Assembly: GCA_903894955.1 (NCBI GenBank)
Contig: CAITSA010000001.1
Coordinates: 3,769-67,768 of the forward strand
Length of the DNA: 64,000 nt
From: an uncultured bacterium
GTDB taxonomy: Bacteria; Patescibacteriota; Minisyncoccia; Phycocordibacterales; UBA9973
Direction: 5' to 3'
The notes under the pieces were generated by a model. It was not told the origin of the DNA. It did no database searches and saw only the letters and a list, made by a program, of their open reading frames with translations. Positions 31,839 through 62,165 of this stretch are shown in pieces. A program made the position numbers and the translations under genes. The stretch's first letter is position 1, and each line of letters begins with the position of its first letter.

Positions 31839-32285
31839 TTACTTATTATTCTCTTTTTGTTTACTTAAATCTAATATATCCAAACTCCAAGCTAAATCTC
31901 GTAACTTACTCCCGCTTAACTGGTCGCCTTCTTTTATCATTTGAACTTTATTTGTATTATTATTTTTTTCCCCGCCCGCATCGCCTTGCGAAGCATGGCG
32001 GGCAGGTATACGTTTTTTCCAGATGTAAAGTTTATTTTGGGTAAAATATTTAAAACTTGATTCTAGCATATTCACAAAAGGTTTATTATTTGGTTTATAA
32101 AAAGTAAGGGTTAGAGAAAATCCAGCCATGATTAAAATCGGGATTGCTCCCATCACGAGACCTAATAATTTATACAATACAAAACATAGGCCTGCTCCTC
32201 CTGCCAAGTAAATAAATTCCCTAAAAGTAAAAGGACCAAATATTTTATCTTCAATATCTAAAAATTGTGGAACTTTGAATTGCAT
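31839..32285 (-). CDS. PrgI/VirB3-like small membrane protein
   Basis: MQFKVPQFLDIEDKIFGPFTFREFIYLAGGAG followed by two TM helices; directly upstream of the VirB4 ORFs. Confidence 0.6.
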   Translation of the reverse strand: MQFKVPQFLDIEDKIFGPFTFREFIYLAGGAGLCFVLYKLLGLVMGAIPILIMAGFSLTLTFYKPNNKPFVNMLESSFKYFTQNKLYIWKKRIPARHASQGDAGGEKNNNTNKVQMIKEGDQLSGSKLRDLAWSLDILDLSKQKENNK

Positions 32286-32566
32286 CCCGTTAGAGATAGG
32301 AAGCGCCTAATCTATTTTTAAGATAACGCTTGCCCATTCCTGATTTTAAAAATAACTCTCTCGACCTCGCTTTACTTTTTAATAAGCACCCTTCGTAGTA
32401 TATCAAAATAAATGGGCCTCGTCCTTTCGTATATGTAGATAAACCTTTATTGTGCTGACTTAGGCGCTTTCGTAGGTCTTGCGTATATCCCGTATAAATT
32501 TTACCGTCCTTCTTACTTTTTAAGATATATGTGTAATAAAACATAAGTGATCTCTAACGGGATGCA
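32281..32566 (-). mobile_element. GIY-YIG gene cassette bounded by 17-bp perfect inverted repeats
   Basis: TGCATCCCGTTAGAGAT (32281-32297) and ATCTCTAACGGGATGCA (32550-32566) are exact reverse complements. Between them lies only the GIY-YIG ORF. Confidence 0.65.
32290..32544 (-). CDS. GIY-YIG nuclease-domain protein (short, UPF0213-like)
   Basis: YYTYILKSKKDGKIYTGYTQDLRKRLSQHNKG; 84 aa. Confidence 0.8.
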   Translation of the reverse strand: MFYYTYILKSKKDGKIYTGYTQDLRKRLSQHNKGLSTYTKGRGPFILIYYEGCLLKSKARSRELFLKSGMGKRYLKNRLGASYL

Positions 32567-32569
32567 TGA

Positions 32570-33190
32570 TTATTCATCTGGTGACAAACGATATGGATCT
32601 GCCTTAGGTGGATAAGAGGCAGCAGATGTTAGATTTTTCAACGAGTGCTCAGTTTCTACTACCTCATTTTTAACATAACCAGATAATTTTTGGGCTAAGA
32701 TTGGAGGGGGAGTTGGTAACTCTGTTTTTTTAGGTTCATTTATTGGTGATGTGGGGATAATTTCAATTCCAGCAGAACTTAATATTTTAGCATTATTTTC
32801 TGCTTCTTCTTTAGTCTCAGGGATTTCTTCTGGCCCTTGTTTTTCTACAGATACTTTTTTATTTTCAATAATTTTAATTAAATTTTCTTTTATTTTTACA
32901 AAAACTCGGTCATTCATTTCTTTTACTAAATCATTAACTTCACTTTTTTGGAGTTTTAGCCTTTTTTCTATTTCTTTTGAATAGTTTTCAGGGATAATAA
33001 GCCCACAAAGCACTAATTCTGTTTCAATTTCTAGATCTTCTAATTGTTCGAAACTGTATCCTTTTTTCTCTCTCATTCCTAAAACCACTGATTTCCAATC
33101 AACGGCGTTGATAGCATTTTGGGTATCTTCCGGCAACCCTGCTTTTGCTTTCTCAATTTTTATTTGTAGTAAATCTTTTGTATCGTTCAT
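32570..33190 (-). CDS. hypothetical protein, paralogue of 33223-33786
   Basis: Shared N-terminal ~110-aa domain (..NAINAVDWKSVV...LEIETELVLCGLI.PENYSKEIE / ..DVINTFGWEKIT...FQVETLLILTGLEDPNSYAKNIE). Pro-rich tail. Confidence 0.7.
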   Translation of the reverse strand: MNDTKDLLQIKIEKAKAGLPEDTQNAINAVDWKSVVLGMREKKGYSFEQLEDLEIETELVLCGLIIPENYSKEIEKRLKLQKSEVNDLVKEMNDRVFVKIKENLIKIIENKKVSVEKQGPEEIPETKEEAENNAKILSSAGIEIIPTSPINEPKKTELPTPPPILAQKLSGYVKNEVVETEHSLKNLTSAASYPPKADPYRLSPDE

Positions 33191-43490: not shown

Positions 43491-45560
43491 TTATAAGTAA
43501 ATTGTTTTTATTCCACTGGCCTCACCTTCTTTTTTTAAAATATCAGCTGGAATATCTGAAATAAATTCTGATGGTGTATTTATCTGGCGTGATCCAAAAA
43601 TAGTCCGGAAATTTGCAAATGACAAAAATAATTTTTCTTTAGCGCGAGTGAGTGCCACATAAAAAAGTCTGCGTTCTTCCTCGTCGTCTTCATTTGCTTT
43701 ATTTTCATTTTGTCTTTCGTGTGGGAAAAGTCCATCTTCTAATCCTGTAATAAAAACATATTTAAATTCAAGTCCTTTTGAAGCATGGACGGTCATAAGT
43801 TTTATAGCGTTTACTTTTTCTTTTTTTTCTTGATTAATCATTAATGAATCTTGATCTGATGCTAGTGACGCATCTTCTAAAAGTTTTTCTACTCCTGTTC
43901 CACTTGTTAGATTGTCATATTTGAGTGCAAGGGTGGCGAGCTCTTTGATGTTTTCTAATCTCTCCATATCTTCTTCGGTTCCAGCAGAAAGTTCTTGTTC
44001 AATCCCGGACTTTTTAACTACAAATTTTATTATCTCGCTTGTCTTTAAACCTTGTTTTTGTTCATCTTGTCTGGATATTTTTTCTTTTATCTCTTCGAGT
44101 ATTTTATAAAAATTATTAATTTTTATTTGCATTTTTATCGGCAAGGTTTCTCTTTGTCCAGAAAAAATTTTCATTAAAGTTACTTTTCCGATGCCTCGTG
44201 CTGGGAAATTTATTATTCTTTTTATATCAGATAAACTATCGGGGTTTAGAGCTGCTCGTAAATAGGCTAAAGTATCTTTAATTTCTTTTCTTTCAAAAAA
44301 TTTAACACCTAAAACTTGATATGGGATATTATACCGAAGCATCGCTTCTTCCAAAACTCTGGACTGAAAATTTGCACGATAAAGAATTGCTATTTCAAAC
44401 AAATGAGAGGATGTTACTTTTGTGGGGTCGCTGTCTGTGCCTACTGGCACAGCGCTGCCTCTCGGCCCGTCGGCCTGTGAGACACCCCTCAAAAGCAAAT
44501 CCTCTCCTTTGTCTAGTATTTCTAGAATTTTTGTTGCGACGAATTCTCCTTCGTCTGTTTCGTCGAGTGCTTCATATAAGCCTATCTTCTCCCCTTCCAC
44601 ATTGTTTGTAAATAAATTTTTATCTGGTCTATATTTATTTTTCTTGATTACCACATTGGCTGCTTCTAAAATATTTTTTGTAGATCTGTAATTTTGTTCC
44701 AGTAAAATTATTTTTGCATTTGGATAATCTTTTTCAAAATTTAAAATATTTTTCAAATTTGCTCCGCGCCAAGAATAGATATTTTGATCTGCATCACCCA
44801 CCACGCAAATATTTCTATTAGTATTTGTTAGTAATTTAGACATCAAATACTGCACTTCATTTGTGTCTTGATATTCATCGATGTGTATATATTCCCATCT
44901 TTCTTGATAAATTTTTCTTATCTCTTTGTTTTCTTTTAATAATTTTGTAGTCTTTAACAACAGATCATCAAAATCTAATGCATTCTCTTTTGTCTTTTGT
45001 TTTTCATATAAATTCCAAACTTGAGCCACAATTTTCCCCAAAGAATTTCCTCCTCCCTCTTCCCTTTCTACATAATCCGCTAAATATACAAACTTTCCTT
45101 TTTCTCGGGAAATTATATTTTTGATTTTTTTTGGATCATATTGTTTCGGGTCTAAGCTAAGCTCTTTTAAGATATTCTTTATCAGAGTGGTGGTATCATT
45201 TTCGTCTAAAATAGTAAAATATTTTGTTAAACCTAAAAGTTGTGCATTTTCTTTTATAATATAGACTCCCAAAGAGTGGAAGGTGCTGACGAAAGGAATT
45301 TTATCTTGTCCTTTGGCATTTTTTTGGATTTCTCCGATAATTCTCTCGCGCATTTCTTTAGCTGCTTTGTTGGTGAACGTGACCGCTAAAATTTTATCAG
45401 GCGAAACTCCATTTTTTATTAGATTGACAATTCGATGCGTAATAGTCTTTGTTTTTCCCGCTCCCGCTCCAGCCACAATCAAAAGTGGACCCTTCACATG
45501 AAGTGCTGCCTCTTTTTGCTCCTTATTGAGACCTTTTAAATGCTGTTCGTCTATAGCCAC
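43491..45560 (-). CDS. pcrA: UvrD/PcrA-family SF1 DNA helicase
   Basis: AGAGAGKTKTITHR, IHIDEYQDTN, VGDADQNIYSWRGA, TVHASKGLEF. Confidence 0.9.
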   Translation of the reverse strand: MAIDEQHLKGLNKEQKEAALHVKGPLLIVAGAGAGKTKTITHRIVNLIKNGVSPDKILAVTFTNKAAKEMRERIIGEIQKNAKGQDKIPFVSTFHSLGVYIIKENAQLLGLTKYFTILDENDTTTLIKNILKELSLDPKQYDPKKIKNIISREKGKFVYLADYVEREEGGGNSLGKIVAQVWNLYEKQKTKENALDFDDLLLKTTKLLKENKEIRKIYQERWEYIHIDEYQDTNEVQYLMSKLLTNTNRNICVVGDADQNIYSWRGANLKNILNFEKDYPNAKIILLEQNYRSTKNILEAANVVIKKNKYRPDKNLFTNNVEGEKIGLYEALDETDEGEFVATKILEILDKGEDLLLRGVSQADGPRGSAVPVGTDSDPTKVTSSHLFEIAILYRANFQSRVLEEAMLRYNIPYQVLGVKFFERKEIKDTLAYLRAALNPDSLSDIKRIINFPARGIGKVTLMKIFSGQRETLPIKMQIKINNFYKILEEIKEKISRQDEQKQGLKTSEIIKFVVKKSGIEQELSAGTEEDMERLENIKELATLALKYDNLTSGTGVEKLLEDASLASDQDSLMINQEKKEKVNAIKLMTVHASKGLEFKYVFITGLEDGLFPHERQNENKANEDDEEERRLFYVALTRAKEKLFLSFANFRTIFGSRQINTPSEFISDIPADILKKEGEASGIKTIYL

Positions 45561-56625: not shown

Positions 56626-57441
56626 TTAAATCTCTAGCCAAATTGGACAGTGGTCCGAGCCGTAATAATCAGACAACATGCCCGTGGCTTTTATCCCGAC
56701 GCTTTTAGGTCGGGACCCCGACAACGAAGTTCGTCGGGGCTTTAGATCTTTGAAAAAAATTTCATCGGCAAAAAAATAATCAAGACGCCAGCCGACATTT
56801 CTATCTCTAGCGCGAGTTTTGATATCCCAATATGTATAAGCGCCAATTTTTTCTGGATAAAACTTTCTAAATACATCAATGAATTTATTTTTTATTACTT
56901 TATCAATCCAAGCACGTTCTATGGGCAAGAAACCAGTATTTTCAACGTTAGCTTTCGGGCGGGCAAGGTCGATTTCTTCATGGGCTGTATTTATATCTCC
57001 ACAAAAAATTACATTTTCGCCATTCTTTCGCAACTTCAGGATAAATTTTAGAAAAGCTTCGTAAAATTCTAATTTATATTTTAATCTATGTGGTCCTTGG
57101 CCACCATTTGGAAAATATCCAGTAATGATGGTGCAATTTTTTAATTTTACACCAAGCAATCTTCCCTCGTTGTCTAATTTTTTTACACCCATACCATAAA
57201 AAACTTCTCTCGGTTTTTCTTTAGTGTAAATTGCTACCCCACTGTATCCTTTCTTAATTTTTGGATGTGAAAAGTAAGAATAATATCCAGAAATATTTCG
57301 TACTTCGGGAGGCAATTGTTCTGGAGTGGCTTTTGTTTCTTGTAGACATAAAATATCTGGTCTGTTTTTAAATAGGGGAATAAAAAATCCTTGTTTTGCT
57401 GTTGCCCGAAGCCCGTTGGTGTTCCAAGAAATTATTTTCAT
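56626..57441 (-). CDS. xthA: exodeoxyribonuclease III
   Basis: [31 protein letters not shown]. Confidence 0.9.
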   Translation of the reverse strand: [271 protein letters not shown]

Positions 57442-60014: not shown

Positions 60015-62165
60015 ATGGGCGAATATATGCAAAAAAAAGAATATAGTGTAGAGATTGGCGGAAAAACATTAACGGCTATTTTTACTGATTTAGCTGAACA
60101 AGCTCATGGTTCAGTAATATTAAAATATGGAGAAACAATTGTTCTGGCCACTGTTTGTATGTCTCATGACAAACAAAAAGGTTTAGGATATTTTAATTTG
60201 ACAGTTGATTATGTAGAAAAATTTTATGCAGCTGGAAAAATTTTAGGTTCACGTTTTGTTAGACGAGAAGGGAGACCTTCAGAAGAAGCTATCCTTGCCA
60301 GTCGAGTTATCGACAGGACTCTTCGTCCACTTTTTGATCAATCGATTCGTCACGCGGTGCAAGTCATTGTGACGGTTCTTTCGGTAGACGACAATGATCC
60401 GACGATTTTAGCAGTTAATGCAGCCTCTCTCGCTTTAGCTGTTTCGAATATTCCATGGAATGGTCCTATTGGTTGTGTGCGTATTGGTAAATACGATAAC
60501 GATAATCTAATCATCAATCCAGCCCAGTCTTTGCGTATAGATGAGGATACTCAATATAAGTTTGACCTAACTGTTTGCGGGAAAGATGGAAATATAAATA
60601 TGATTGAAGCCTCTGCCCGTCAGAGCAAGGAAGAAGAATTAGAAGAAGCCTTAGAAAAGGCAAGTATTGAAATAACTAAACTAGAAAATTTTCAAAAGAA
60701 AATAGTGGGAGAAATAGGTAAAGAAAAAAGAATTATTGAGAAAGAAATAATTTCTCCAGAATCAGTGGCTTTATTTAATGAAAATATTTTACCCAAAATG
60801 GAGGAAGCACTTTTTGGCGAAGCGGGCCTGCCTGCGCAGTCAGGCAAAAAGAAAATAGATGATTTGCATAATATGTGGAATAAAATGGTGCAGGATAAAT
60901 TCAAAGACCGAGACGATTTCTTCTTAGAAGATAATTTGTTTGATGATGCAGAAAATGAAATCTTGCACAAAAAAGCGATAGCAGAAAACAAAAGAGCTGA
61001 TGGAAGAAAGATGGACGAACTTCGTGATTTATATGCTCAAGCCGGAGGATTTTCGAGTAAATTACATGGTTCGGGAATTTTTTATCGTGGAGGAACACAT
61101 GTGCTTTCAGTCCTCACCTTAGGTGGTCCTGAAGATAGAAATTTAGTTGATGGCTTACAGTTGAAAGTAGAGAAAAGATTTATGCATCATTATAATTTTC
61201 CTCCTTATTCTGGAGGAGAAGTAGGAAGATCAGGTTTTACTAATCGCCGAGAAATTGGACATGGAGCCCTCGCCGAAAAAGCTCTAGCGATGGTTCTGCC
61301 TTCAGTTTCAGAATTTCCATATACCATGAGAATTGTTTCTGAATCAATGGCTTCTAATGGTTCTACTTCACAAGCAAGTATTTGCGCTTCTATTCTCGCC
61401 TTGATGGATGGCGGAGTGCCAATTAAAGCACCTGTCGCTGGCATAGCGATGGGCTTGATGATTGAAGATGATGCAAAATACAAAATTTTGACTGACATTC
61501 AAGGACCCGAAGATCATCATGGTGATATGGATTTCAAAATTGCTGGAACGAGAATTGGTGTTACCGCTATCCAGCTTGATGTAAAAGTAGAAGGAGTATC
61601 GATAAAAATATTAGGGGAAGCAATGAGACAAGGAAAAATTGCACGGGTAGTTATTATTGATAGACTAGAAAAAGAAATTCCAAAATCCCGAGACAATATT
61701 TCTCCAAACGCACCAAAGATTTTAATTATTAAAATTAATCCTGAAAAAATTGGTTTAGTGATTGGTGGTGGAGGAAAAACAATCAAAGAAATTAAAGAAA
61801 AATCTGGCGCGGAAATAACCATTGAAGATGACGGAACTGTTTATTTGACCGGAAAAGATGGATCAGCTGAAAAAGCAAAAGAATTAGTTGAAGAGATGAC
61901 TCATGAATTTAAAGTGGGGGAAATGTTGAAAGGTGAGGTTATGAAAATTCTTGATTTTGGAGCTTTTGTGGCCTTGAATCCTTTCACGGATGGAATGGTG
62001 CATATTTCTGAAATAGCACCATTTCGCGTCGAGAGAGTATCAGATATAATAAAGGAAGGGATGATTGTTCCAGTGAAAGTTATCTCTATTGATAAAGAAA
62101 GAGGGAAAATTGGTCTATCTATTAAAGAAGCGGATAAAGATTTTTTTAATGGCGGAAAAAAATAA
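60015..62165 (+). CDS. pnp: polyribonucleotide nucleotidyltransferase (PNPase)
   Basis: Two RNase PH domains; KH (VIGGGGKTIKEI); S1 (GEVMKILDFGAFVAL). Follows rpsO as usual. Confidence 0.9.
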   Translation: MGEYMQKKEYSVEIGGKTLTAIFTDLAEQAHGSVILKYGETIVLATVCMSHDKQKGLGYFNLTVDYVEKFYAAGKILGSRFVRREGRPSEEAILASRVIDRTLRPLFDQSIRHAVQVIVTVLSVDDNDPTILAVNAASLALAVSNIPWNGPIGCVRIGKYDNDNLIINPAQSLRIDEDTQYKFDLTVCGKDGNINMIEASARQSKEEELEEALEKASIEITKLENFQKKIVGEIGKEKRIIEKEIISPESVALFNENILPKMEEALFGEAGLPAQSGKKKIDDLHNMWNKMVQDKFKDRDDFFLEDNLFDDAENEILHKKAIAENKRADGRKMDELRDLYAQAGGFSSKLHGSGIFYRGGTHVLSVLTLGGPEDRNLVDGLQLKVEKRFMHHYNFPPYSGGEVGRSGFTNRREIGHGALAEKALAMVLPSVSEFPYTMRIVSESMASNGSTSQASICASILALMDGGVPIKAPVAGIAMGLMIEDDAKYKILTDIQGPEDHHGDMDFKIAGTRIGVTAIQLDVKVEGVSIKILGEAMRQGKIARVVIIDRLEKEIPKSRDNISPNAPKILIIKINPEKIGLVIGGGGKTIKEIKEKSGAEITIEDDGTVYLTGKDGSAEKAKELVEEMTHEFKVGEMLKGEVMKILDFGAFVALNPFTDGMVHISEIAPFRVERVSDIIKEGMIVPVKVISIDKERGKIGLSIKEADKDFFNGGKK

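Follow-up and report, generated by a model that had tools for sequence, protein, structure and literature searches.

An ultra-compact transposable element of the Patescibacteria with a single GIY-YIG nuclease gene at the start codon of a PrgI-like gene

A GIY-YIG gene and its inverted repeats in a secretion operon

The window analyzed here, a 64-kb stretch of DNA from an uncultured member of the Patescibacteriota, contains a gene for a GIY-YIG nuclease lodged between two genes of a type IV secretion system (T4SS) locus, where all genes lie on the minus strand. Our analysis shows that this gene and the repeats around it constitute one copy of an ultra-compact transposable element of the Patescibacteria, with 13-bp terminal inverted repeats and just one gene. 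It also shows that the element sits at host start codons in the orientation of the host gene, with a 4-5 bp (A)TGNN duplication, and that its own last base rebuilds the start codon.

The sequence TGCATCCCGTTAGAGAT at 32281-32297 recurs as its exact reverse complement at 32550-32566, forming a perfect 17-bp inverted repeat; these are its only two matches in the whole window, even with up to three mismatches (chance expectation 0.12). Between the arms lies a single open reading frame (ORF; 32290-32544, minus strand) coding for an 84-aa GIY-YIG protein. Two codons fall within the left repeat, namely the TAA at which the nuclease gene stops (32290-32292) and the ATG at which the PrgI-like gene begins (32283-32285). 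The right repeat stops 3 nt short of the upstream gene's stop codon (32570-32572). The cassette fills the resulting 284-nt spacer (32286-32569), the other intergenic gaps nearby measuring 6-32 nt. The repeats, the ORF between them and their position relative to the neighboring genes are as the original prediction, made from the letters of the window, had described them. The repeat length of 17 bp, however, is true only locally: the repeat conserved across the family is 13 bp per arm (32285-32297 and 32550-32562), and the outer 4 bp of the window's arms pair because the duplicated host ATGCA contains TGCA, which, being palindromic, extends the apparent inverted repeat from 13-14 to 17 bp.

The mobile element proper thus measures 278 bp (32285..32562, minus strand) and aligns end to end with 74 other copies; similarity among the copies ends at these boundaries and the flanks are host-specific. 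On the coding strand, the 5' terminal repeat, TCCCGTTAGAGAT (32550..32562), lies 5 nt before the nuclease ATG, and the 3' terminal repeat, ATCTCTAACGGGA (32285..32297), ends in the base at 32285, which is simultaneously the A of the host ATG. The two repeats form the 5' and 3' strands of the helix P1 discussed below. Flank covariation and the comparison of filled and empty sites identify an upstream copy of the duplicated host ATGCA, i.e., the original PrgI start plus 2 nt (32563..32567, minus), whereas the downstream copy comprises the host TGCA (32281..32284, minus), which together with the element's A restores ATG-CA.

The host target gene (31839..32285, minus) codes for a PrgI/VirB3-like T4SS component (Pfam PrgI PF12666, E=8.7e-9) and is followed by a TrsD-like gene and a VirB4-like ATPase. 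Upstream of the cassette lie two genes without a family assignment and a gene for an 801-aa membrane protein; the adjoining upstream operon gene (32570..33190, minus; 206 aa, no family match) has its stop 2 nt before the upstream host-start copy. In empty relatives, the homologous tail of this gene (…DPYRLSPxE and stop) is followed by ATGCAA within the next 1-13 nt. The gene set is that of the conserved T4SS locus of the Patescibacteria, and PrgI has been reported to be essential in a cultivated Saccharibacterium (PMC12102498).

Copies, target sites and derivatives

Close relatives of the nuclease protein fall into more than 1,100 clusters; the top 120 are 82-100% identical and nearly all 84 aa long, and the few clusters named by source belong to patescibacterial lineages (Nomurabacteria, Paceibacteria, Woesebacteria and Minisyncoccia). 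For comparison of the family we retrieved 80 loci from reference genomes, and the analyses of ends and flanks used 108 elements, namely 76 gene-bearing copies and 32 units resembling miniature inverted-repeat transposable elements (MITEs). Nearly every gene-bearing copy is flanked by the same inverted repeat, (T/C)CCCGTTAGAGAT…ATCTCTAACGGG(A/G). These shared ends were seen in 76 copies, down to 62% protein identity; across them the core CCCGTTAGA is invariant, and positions 0, 10, 11 and 12 vary solely as matched pairs. The layout is also constant: some 5 nt separate the end of the upstream arm from the ATG, and the stop codon falls within the downstream arm. At least seven assemblies carry two to three copies on separate contigs and at different genes (e.g., three contigs of LBZL01). 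No close relatives were found on viral contigs or phage genomes, where the GIY-YIG genes are all less than 45% identical, and we accordingly rejected these as vectors. GIY-YIG proteins have been listed among the genes apparently exported from the Patescibacteria by horizontal transfer (PMC12455944), which fits a mobile element family. Many database representatives of the family (e.g., P0123, P0128, P0130 and P0133) are 95-130 aa long, with the match beginning only at residues 10-47. In these, the gene caller has probably placed the start too early, either at the ATG of the duplicated host sequence or at some other in-frame codon upstream; annotated starts near the elements are unreliable.

Among 71 gene-bearing copies, the right arm is directly followed by ATG in 56 and by GTG in four, and that start opens an ORF of at least 60 codons in 57, always in the same orientation as the nuclease gene. 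A direct ATG or GTG opening an ORF of this length is seen in 84 of all 108 elements, for which the consensus reads A-T-G-R-A / T·CCCG…CGGG·A / T-G-R-A (slashes separating element from flanks). In most elements, the left arm is preceded by a short copy of the host gene start. Flank position -3 equals +4 in 44 of 49 elements (24 expected) and -2 equals +5 in 45 of 49 (33 expected), which identifies the flanks as duplicated host sequence; position -1, in contrast, matches +6 in 15 of 49 elements, precisely the expected 15, and hence belongs to the element. The duplication is mostly (A)TGNN, i.e., 4-5 bp, with a range of 3-6 bp, and many of the copies lacking an upstream ATG differ from it by a single substitution. 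Some lineages have C:G in place of T:A as their terminal pair; there, the host gene starts with GTG, although ATG is retained in the upstream copy. Thus, the first base of the working start codon comes from the element. The stop codon in the right repeat lies 4 nt before the rebuilt ATG, and overlaps it as ATGA in variants of 86-87 aa. The targets include the genes for FtsH, SecY, LeuRS, TrmD, MurG and VirB4.

To view the target site without the element, 80 PrgI-like loci were sampled from metagenomes by the PrgI protein alone, regardless of the cassette. The great majority (76) are empty, three carry a 276-bp element and one a 119-bp non-coding derivative, all at the same nucleotide. In the empty loci, the stop of the upstream gene is followed by a few nucleotides and then ATGCAATT…. 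For instance, the empty locus L129 reads …ccagaagaaTAAt followed by ATGCAAttc, as against …ccagatgaaTAAtc·ATGCA·T[element]ATGCAAttc in the window. At shared PrgI sites, the element has consistently diverged less at synonymous positions (0.23-0.52) than the PrgI gene next to it (0.41-0.87), indicating that the element has not simply co-diverged with its host. The original prediction of a minimal selfish cassette is strongly supported by its presence at many genes, by several copies per genome, by the flanking host duplication and by the empty state of most PrgI loci. Another contig, L001, which is 94% identical, matches the window exactly across the cassette and differs further downstream only; being identical there, it says nothing on the age of the cassette.

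The closest relative by PrgI (82% identity; L088:2461-2521) is empty and reads …aataATGC·ATGCAAttt, with a tandem ATGC at the insertion point. This may be an excision footprint that kept the target duplication, or, as a single case, may be due to chance. In many empty loci, short repeat motifs, tandem or dispersed, stand directly upstream of the PrgI start, replacing the tail of the upstream gene; they may belong to a promoter region or be other repeats. Several families of them recur across contigs, with taattcgtaattcg… in L093, L120, L128, L149 and L160, ctagggcctagcgcctaaagcc… in L119, L121, L122, L125 and L147, and actttatgaactttataac… in L137, L139, L155 and L156.

The 32 MITE-like units are 46-120 bp long and have the family ends, the flanking duplication and the position at a start codon; many are GC-rich hairpins, laid out as P1, a 1-nt bulge on the 3' side and a P2-like stem. 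In 15 of the 32, a mini-ORF ends at the right-arm TAA, 4 nt before the host ATG, with differing peptides. The shortest derivatives (46-69 nt) have no ORF, and six units read in frame into the host protein. A rule whereby the host's original ATG is translated through the MITE to the stop in the arm was considered and rejected, as it holds in only six of the 32. A 118-bp subfamily with a mini-ORF of 23-31 codons occupies, in relatives, the start codon of the next gene after PrgI, the TrsD-like one (ATGGCCTTAAA…; L001:~950-1003, L011:5687-5804, L094:1124-1240, L105:2183-2300 and L138:2949-3066). The equivalent site in the window (31830) is empty. With both the PrgI and the TrsD-like sites hit, two adjacent start codons of the T4SS operon are recurrent insertion sites. 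Tandem arrangements were also noted (L034:5253-5290, L056:5262-5384 and L057:284-406), in which a second left arm or an entire MITE directly follows the duplicated start behind a GIY-YIG copy, e.g., …CGGGATGAAT·CCCGTTAGAG…. They suggest repeated insertion into the start codon regenerated by a prior insertion.

The cassette had also been proposed as the partner of small GC-rich elements in the window. This is not supported for the window's own hairpins, whose ends are unrelated to those of the GIY-YIG element, the window having no other end of the CCCGTTAGA type, but the 46-120 bp derivatives in other genomes do share its ends. One GC-rich hairpin-forming stretch, at 31969-32009 (CCCCGCCCGCATCGCCTTGCGAAGCATGGCGGGCAGG on the plus strand), lies in frame in the 3' part of the PrgI-like coding sequence, and is missing from L001, which is otherwise near-identical but diverges at this place. 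The stretch resembles an independent small palindromic element that the gene tolerates; its ends have no relation to those of the GIY-YIG element. Further short GC-rich hairpins are found at 1945-1977, 44437-44497, 56711-56743 and 60814-60853 in a genome of 34% G+C (e.g., CCTCCCCCTATATAGGGGGAGG and GGGACCCCGACAACGAAGTTCGTCGGGGC). Their ends are common neither to one another nor to the GIY-YIG element, and some may be terminators.

The nuclease, its conserved fold and the question of mobility

The GIY-YIG domain (PF01541) is the sole Pfam or NCBIfam match of the 84-aa protein (64.5 bits against a cut-off of 22.6, E=1.1e-17, residues 3-69 matching a profile of 78 positions), and no domain lies outside this catalytic core. 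The protein belongs to the UPF0213/YhbQ-like branch: among solved structures it comes closest to two uncharacterized UPF0213 proteins, BH0048 and EF2693 (1zg2, E=1.7e-9, and 1ywl), accompanied by a faint match to Slx1 and a weak one to a model of group I intron endonucleases. With clustering at 50%, the number of matching representatives is 7,448 at a threshold of E<=1e-3 and falls to 849 at E<=1e-10. At least 97% of 75 distinct proteins share the residues Y4, Y6, Y17-T18-G19, R25/R27, H31, N32 and E63, and the median dN/dS (ratio of nonsynonymous to synonymous divergence) is 0.106 at a median dS of 0.81 (748 pairs). The low ratio shows the ORF to be under purifying selection and, with the conserved catalytic residues, indicates that the nuclease function is maintained. 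No transposase of a known class (DDE, HUH, Ser, Tyr or Cas1) is present in the element, the only ORF being that of the GIY-YIG protein. A group I intron was considered as well and rejected: a search of the region against Rfam gave no match at E<=1 except a chance small nucleolar RNA, with no ribozyme core, and the ORF takes up all but 23 nt of the element.

RNAalifold, run on 75 distinct copies (alignment A2), predicts two helices: P1, formed by the terminal repeats, and P2, which joins GGAAGCGCCT, about 90 nt into the element, with AGGCGCTTCC. In the window, the 5' strand of P2 (32462..32471, minus) reads GAAAGCGCCT rather than the GGAAGCGCCT of most copies and lies within the codons R-K-R-L of the nuclease; the 3' strand (32299..32308, minus) lies 1 nt upstream of the 3' terminal repeat. 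P1 is paired in 98.6% of cells across 76 copies, and P1 and P2 together in 98.7% of 1,725 cells, as compared to 31-51% in slid controls. Changes on both sides occur in eight pairs, which none of 500 shuffles reaches, and compensated cells number 56 against 10.4 expected. In P2, four of the ten pairs show double compensatory changes, some of which alter the protein (…GAS… as against …KRF…); hence, the pairing itself is selected. Since one protein acting on two duplex ends would need no P2, it is the folded single strand that matters. The suggestion that the stem could loop the ORF out of the mRNA is plausible, in that covariation shows a folded single strand to be under selection, but RNA and single-stranded DNA are not told apart. 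On the sense strand, G:U pairs outnumber A:C pairs by 11 to six, which does not separate the two.

A sister nuclease lineage of 1,048 proteins (87-88 aa, ~52% identical) has different ends of about 20 bp (ACCCGGTAGTGAGACTTTG…, ACCCCGTAGTAGAATTTTGAC…), its own hairpin derivatives and flanking duplications of TTTGA and TGAA. Thus, nuclease lineage, end sequence and target co-vary between the two lineages. In two sister-lineage copies (L183:1430-1870 and L188), the terminal G of the element and the following TG make a GTG start, …ACTACGGG·GTG·AAAATTTCC. As TTGAA is retained in the flank upstream, it seems that start codons are rebuilt here in a similar manner, at TTG/GTG starts. The rule is less certain in this lineage, however, as no ORF follows the copy in L030. 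More distant GIY-YIG paralogs (32-41% identity) in the same loci have no comparable inverted repeats. Among these small proteins, a 78-aa GIY-YIG gene, ~38% identical to the query, occurs in two copies in L047 (2224-2460 and 3672-3908; 87% identical over 268 bp), one of which directly abuts the left arm of an 84-aa element; repetition or mobility may extend to further lineages of small GIY-YIG genes. A 282-bp unit with similar-looking arms (CCCGTTCGA; L010:2661-2943) was examined and set aside as no member of the family. It is bounded by ATGCCCGTTCGAACAT and ATGTCGAACGGGCAT, contains a tRNA-like T-arm (GGGTTCGATTCCCGTC…CCAC) and directly adjoins an unrelated distant paralog of 94 aa; it is probably a gene of the tRNA or transfer-messenger RNA type.

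Going by these sequence comparisons, we think it rather likely that the nuclease is the element's own mobility enzyme, because it is the sole gene, is strongly conserved, has the fold embedded in its gene and forms lineages that track ends and targets. More tentatively, we posit that the 84-aa protein alone might be the transposase, representing a new catalytic class that cleaves the folded P1/P2 structure and has specialized at start codons by way of termination and re-initiation, with 278 bp then being the smallest autonomous mobile element known; this stronger version is plausible but far from assured. The nuclease would recognize the folded P1/P2 ends, as do structure-specific GIY-YIG relatives like Slx1, and make staggered cuts at the element ends and at ATGRA targets, whereas the cut ends would be joined by repair or ligation on the part of the host. 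It would also act in trans to mobilize the short non-coding derivatives that share these ends. Ribosomes finishing the nuclease ORF would re-initiate at the adjacent start codon and keep the host gene expressed; such re-initiation would let copies persist before essential genes (those for FtsH, SecY, LeuRS, TrmD, MurG and T4SS components).

Several points weigh against this proposal. We know of no GIY-YIG protein that acts alone as a transposase. GIY-YIG enzymes hydrolyze DNA with no covalent intermediate; hence, joining requires another activity. An apparent duplication length varying from 3 to 6 bp is unusual for one enzyme, and the start-codon bias could be due, in part or entirely, not to targeting but to selection acting once the element has inserted at ATGRA. 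Identity between copies in one genome is only about 85-93%, with no recent burst seen, and the window has only the one copy, without a second cassette, 17-mer or 9-nt arm core CCCGTTAGA elsewhere in its 64 kb. The folded form may be RNA or single-stranded DNA, the data fitting either. Finally, the sampled loci are element neighborhoods only, and a trans-acting transposase may be encoded elsewhere.

The last point leads to a rival explanation, in which the unit is mobile but is moved by an unseen enzyme encoded elsewhere, with the GIY-YIG gene as a passenger or an accessory that, for example, raises recombination or stabilizes the element. Gene-less MITE-like copies at the same kind of site would agree with this, as would the absence of transposases among the GIY-YIG nucleases known to us and a variable duplication length that could reflect host repair after the cuts of another enzyme. 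Nevertheless, we regard it as unlikely: the gene-bearing form is the commoner one (76 vs. 32), the ORF is under strong purifying selection with P2 built into it, and nuclease lineage, ends and target vary together. Moreover, 1.0 Mb from 160 loci yielded no larger unit combining the family ends with another transposase, the solo arms in these loci being mostly one-mismatch chance matches or remnants. We consider still less probable a free-standing homing endonuclease that cuts empty alleles and is copied by recombinational repair after DNA exchange, the repeats serving RNA-level control only. It would account for the occupation of the same PrgI site in several diverged lineages by an element less diverged than the host gene, and GIY-YIG is a classic homing-endonuclease fold, as the weak match to the group I intron endonuclease model recalls. 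However, homing makes no target duplication and cannot cross between unrelated genes, whereas duplications and many unrelated targets are what we see; further, the protein has no DNA-binding domain beyond its 84-aa catalytic core, and other genes harbor non-coding derivatives that have these ends.

A different role for the fold, compatible with the nuclease being the mobility enzyme, is that P1 and P2 act in the mRNA, occluding the host start and the region of the element's ribosome-binding site, which would make translation of the host gene dependent on ribosomes passing through the element, or providing a processing site, while mobility uses the duplex repeats alone. The stop codon in the right repeat is 4 nt before a host ATG whose A and U pair within the P1 stem, and 15 of the 32 MITEs keep a mini-ORF ending at the arm stop despite differing peptides. 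In addition, for gene-bearing copies the fold of the sense strand is more stable than that of the antisense strand by 3.4 kcal/mol (p=3e-4), a difference that may reflect base composition. In contrast, the MITEs show no strand asymmetry in folding, their forms of 46-69 nt have no ORF, the G:U and A:C counts do not discriminate and Rfam offers no match; we thus see this role as possible but doubtful. Hardly credible is the view that the nuclease gene is a static, domesticated part of the T4SS operon and that its inverted repeat is due to chance or serves regulation. The gene is co-oriented and tightly packed in the operon, and several metagenome contigs from one population carry it in identical form, but the 76 empty loci out of 80, the many unrelated host genes and the flanking host duplication refute it. 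The empty loci and the copies in other Patescibacteria genomes likewise exclude the outcome named in the original prediction as the one that would speak for domestication, i.e., a gene conserved at this position with no copies elsewhere.

Significance and comparison with known systems

No description of this element was found in the searchable full-text literature, subscription-only papers lying outside that search, and the family is apparently undescribed. If the nuclease is the transposase, it would represent a new class of transposase enzyme, and autonomous mobile DNA would prove able to be smaller than so far known, a bare 84-residue GIY-YIG core sufficing for a cut-and-insert life cycle. 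The family is abundant, with its >1,100 close protein clusters and a sister lineage of about as many, and its residence before secY, ftsH, leuS, trmD, murG and T4SS genes in some of the smallest bacterial genomes known bears on the tolerance of selfish DNA by streamlined genomes. In practical terms, gene callers will misplace starts or report spurious N-terminal extensions at these sites in genomes of the candidate phyla radiation. With short defined ends, a defined target and a tiny protein, the system is testable in vitro, and a programmable or structure-guided mini-nuclease inserting at defined 5-nt motifs could have technical interest.

Among known systems, bacterial insertion sequences (IS) and their MITEs (IS630/Tc1-mariner and IS5-type) share with the element terminal inverted repeats, a short target duplication and a sequence bias in the target. 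They, too, occur more than once per genome, at sites that are filled in some genomes and empty in others, and are accompanied by short non-coding derivatives having their ends. However, they encode a DDE, HUH, serine or tyrosine transposase, as opposed to nothing more than an 84-aa GIY-YIG nuclease; unlike them, the element inserts at and rebuilds start codons and has a second helix, reaching into the ORF, that is kept by covariation. The smallest known IS is about 700 bp long, the 278-bp element being well under half of that. GIY-YIG homing genes (T4 Seg and the I-TevI family) resemble it in catalytic fold, selfish spread, a compact intergenic gene and recurrence at one site. Yet homing enzymes have a long DNA-binding domain and a long locus-specific site, in contrast to the bare UPF0213-branch core seen here, and lack the terminal inverted repeats, target duplication and MITEs that the element displays at many unrelated genes. 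The closest sequence relatives, the Slx1-type and UPF0213/YhbQ proteins (1zg2, 1ywl), offer in their recognition of branched or folded DNA a plausible model for P1/P2. They are single-copy cellular genes, with no mobility linked to them to our knowledge, whereas the element is multi-copy and mobile.

Hairpin repeats that persist inside transcription units are also known from the Rickettsia palindromic elements and the enterobacterial repetitive intergenic consensus (ERIC) and Correia repeats. Some MITE forms of the present family are translated in frame with the host protein, just as palindromic elements are tolerated in expressed regions. Unlike this family, those repeats have neither a nuclease gene with matching ends nor start-codon specificity. 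The repetitive extragenic palindromes (REP) and their associated tyrosine transposases (RAYT), together termed REPtrons, similarly have a small gene with a motif in inverted copies on its two sides, the motif recurring elsewhere in scattered short hairpins; this is true here family-wide but not within the window. With REP/RAYT and IS200/IS605 the element further shares a conserved subterminal structure, which by analogy suggests folded single-strand recognition, and a 4-5 nt target motif beside the left end. Nonetheless, RAYT and TnpA are HUH/Y1 enzymes rather than GIY-YIG nucleases, and IS200/IS605 elements have no terminal inverted repeats or target duplication, both of which are present here. 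Thus, the element behaves as an IS with MITEs and is laid out like REP/RAYT or IS200/IS605, but without any known class of transposase.

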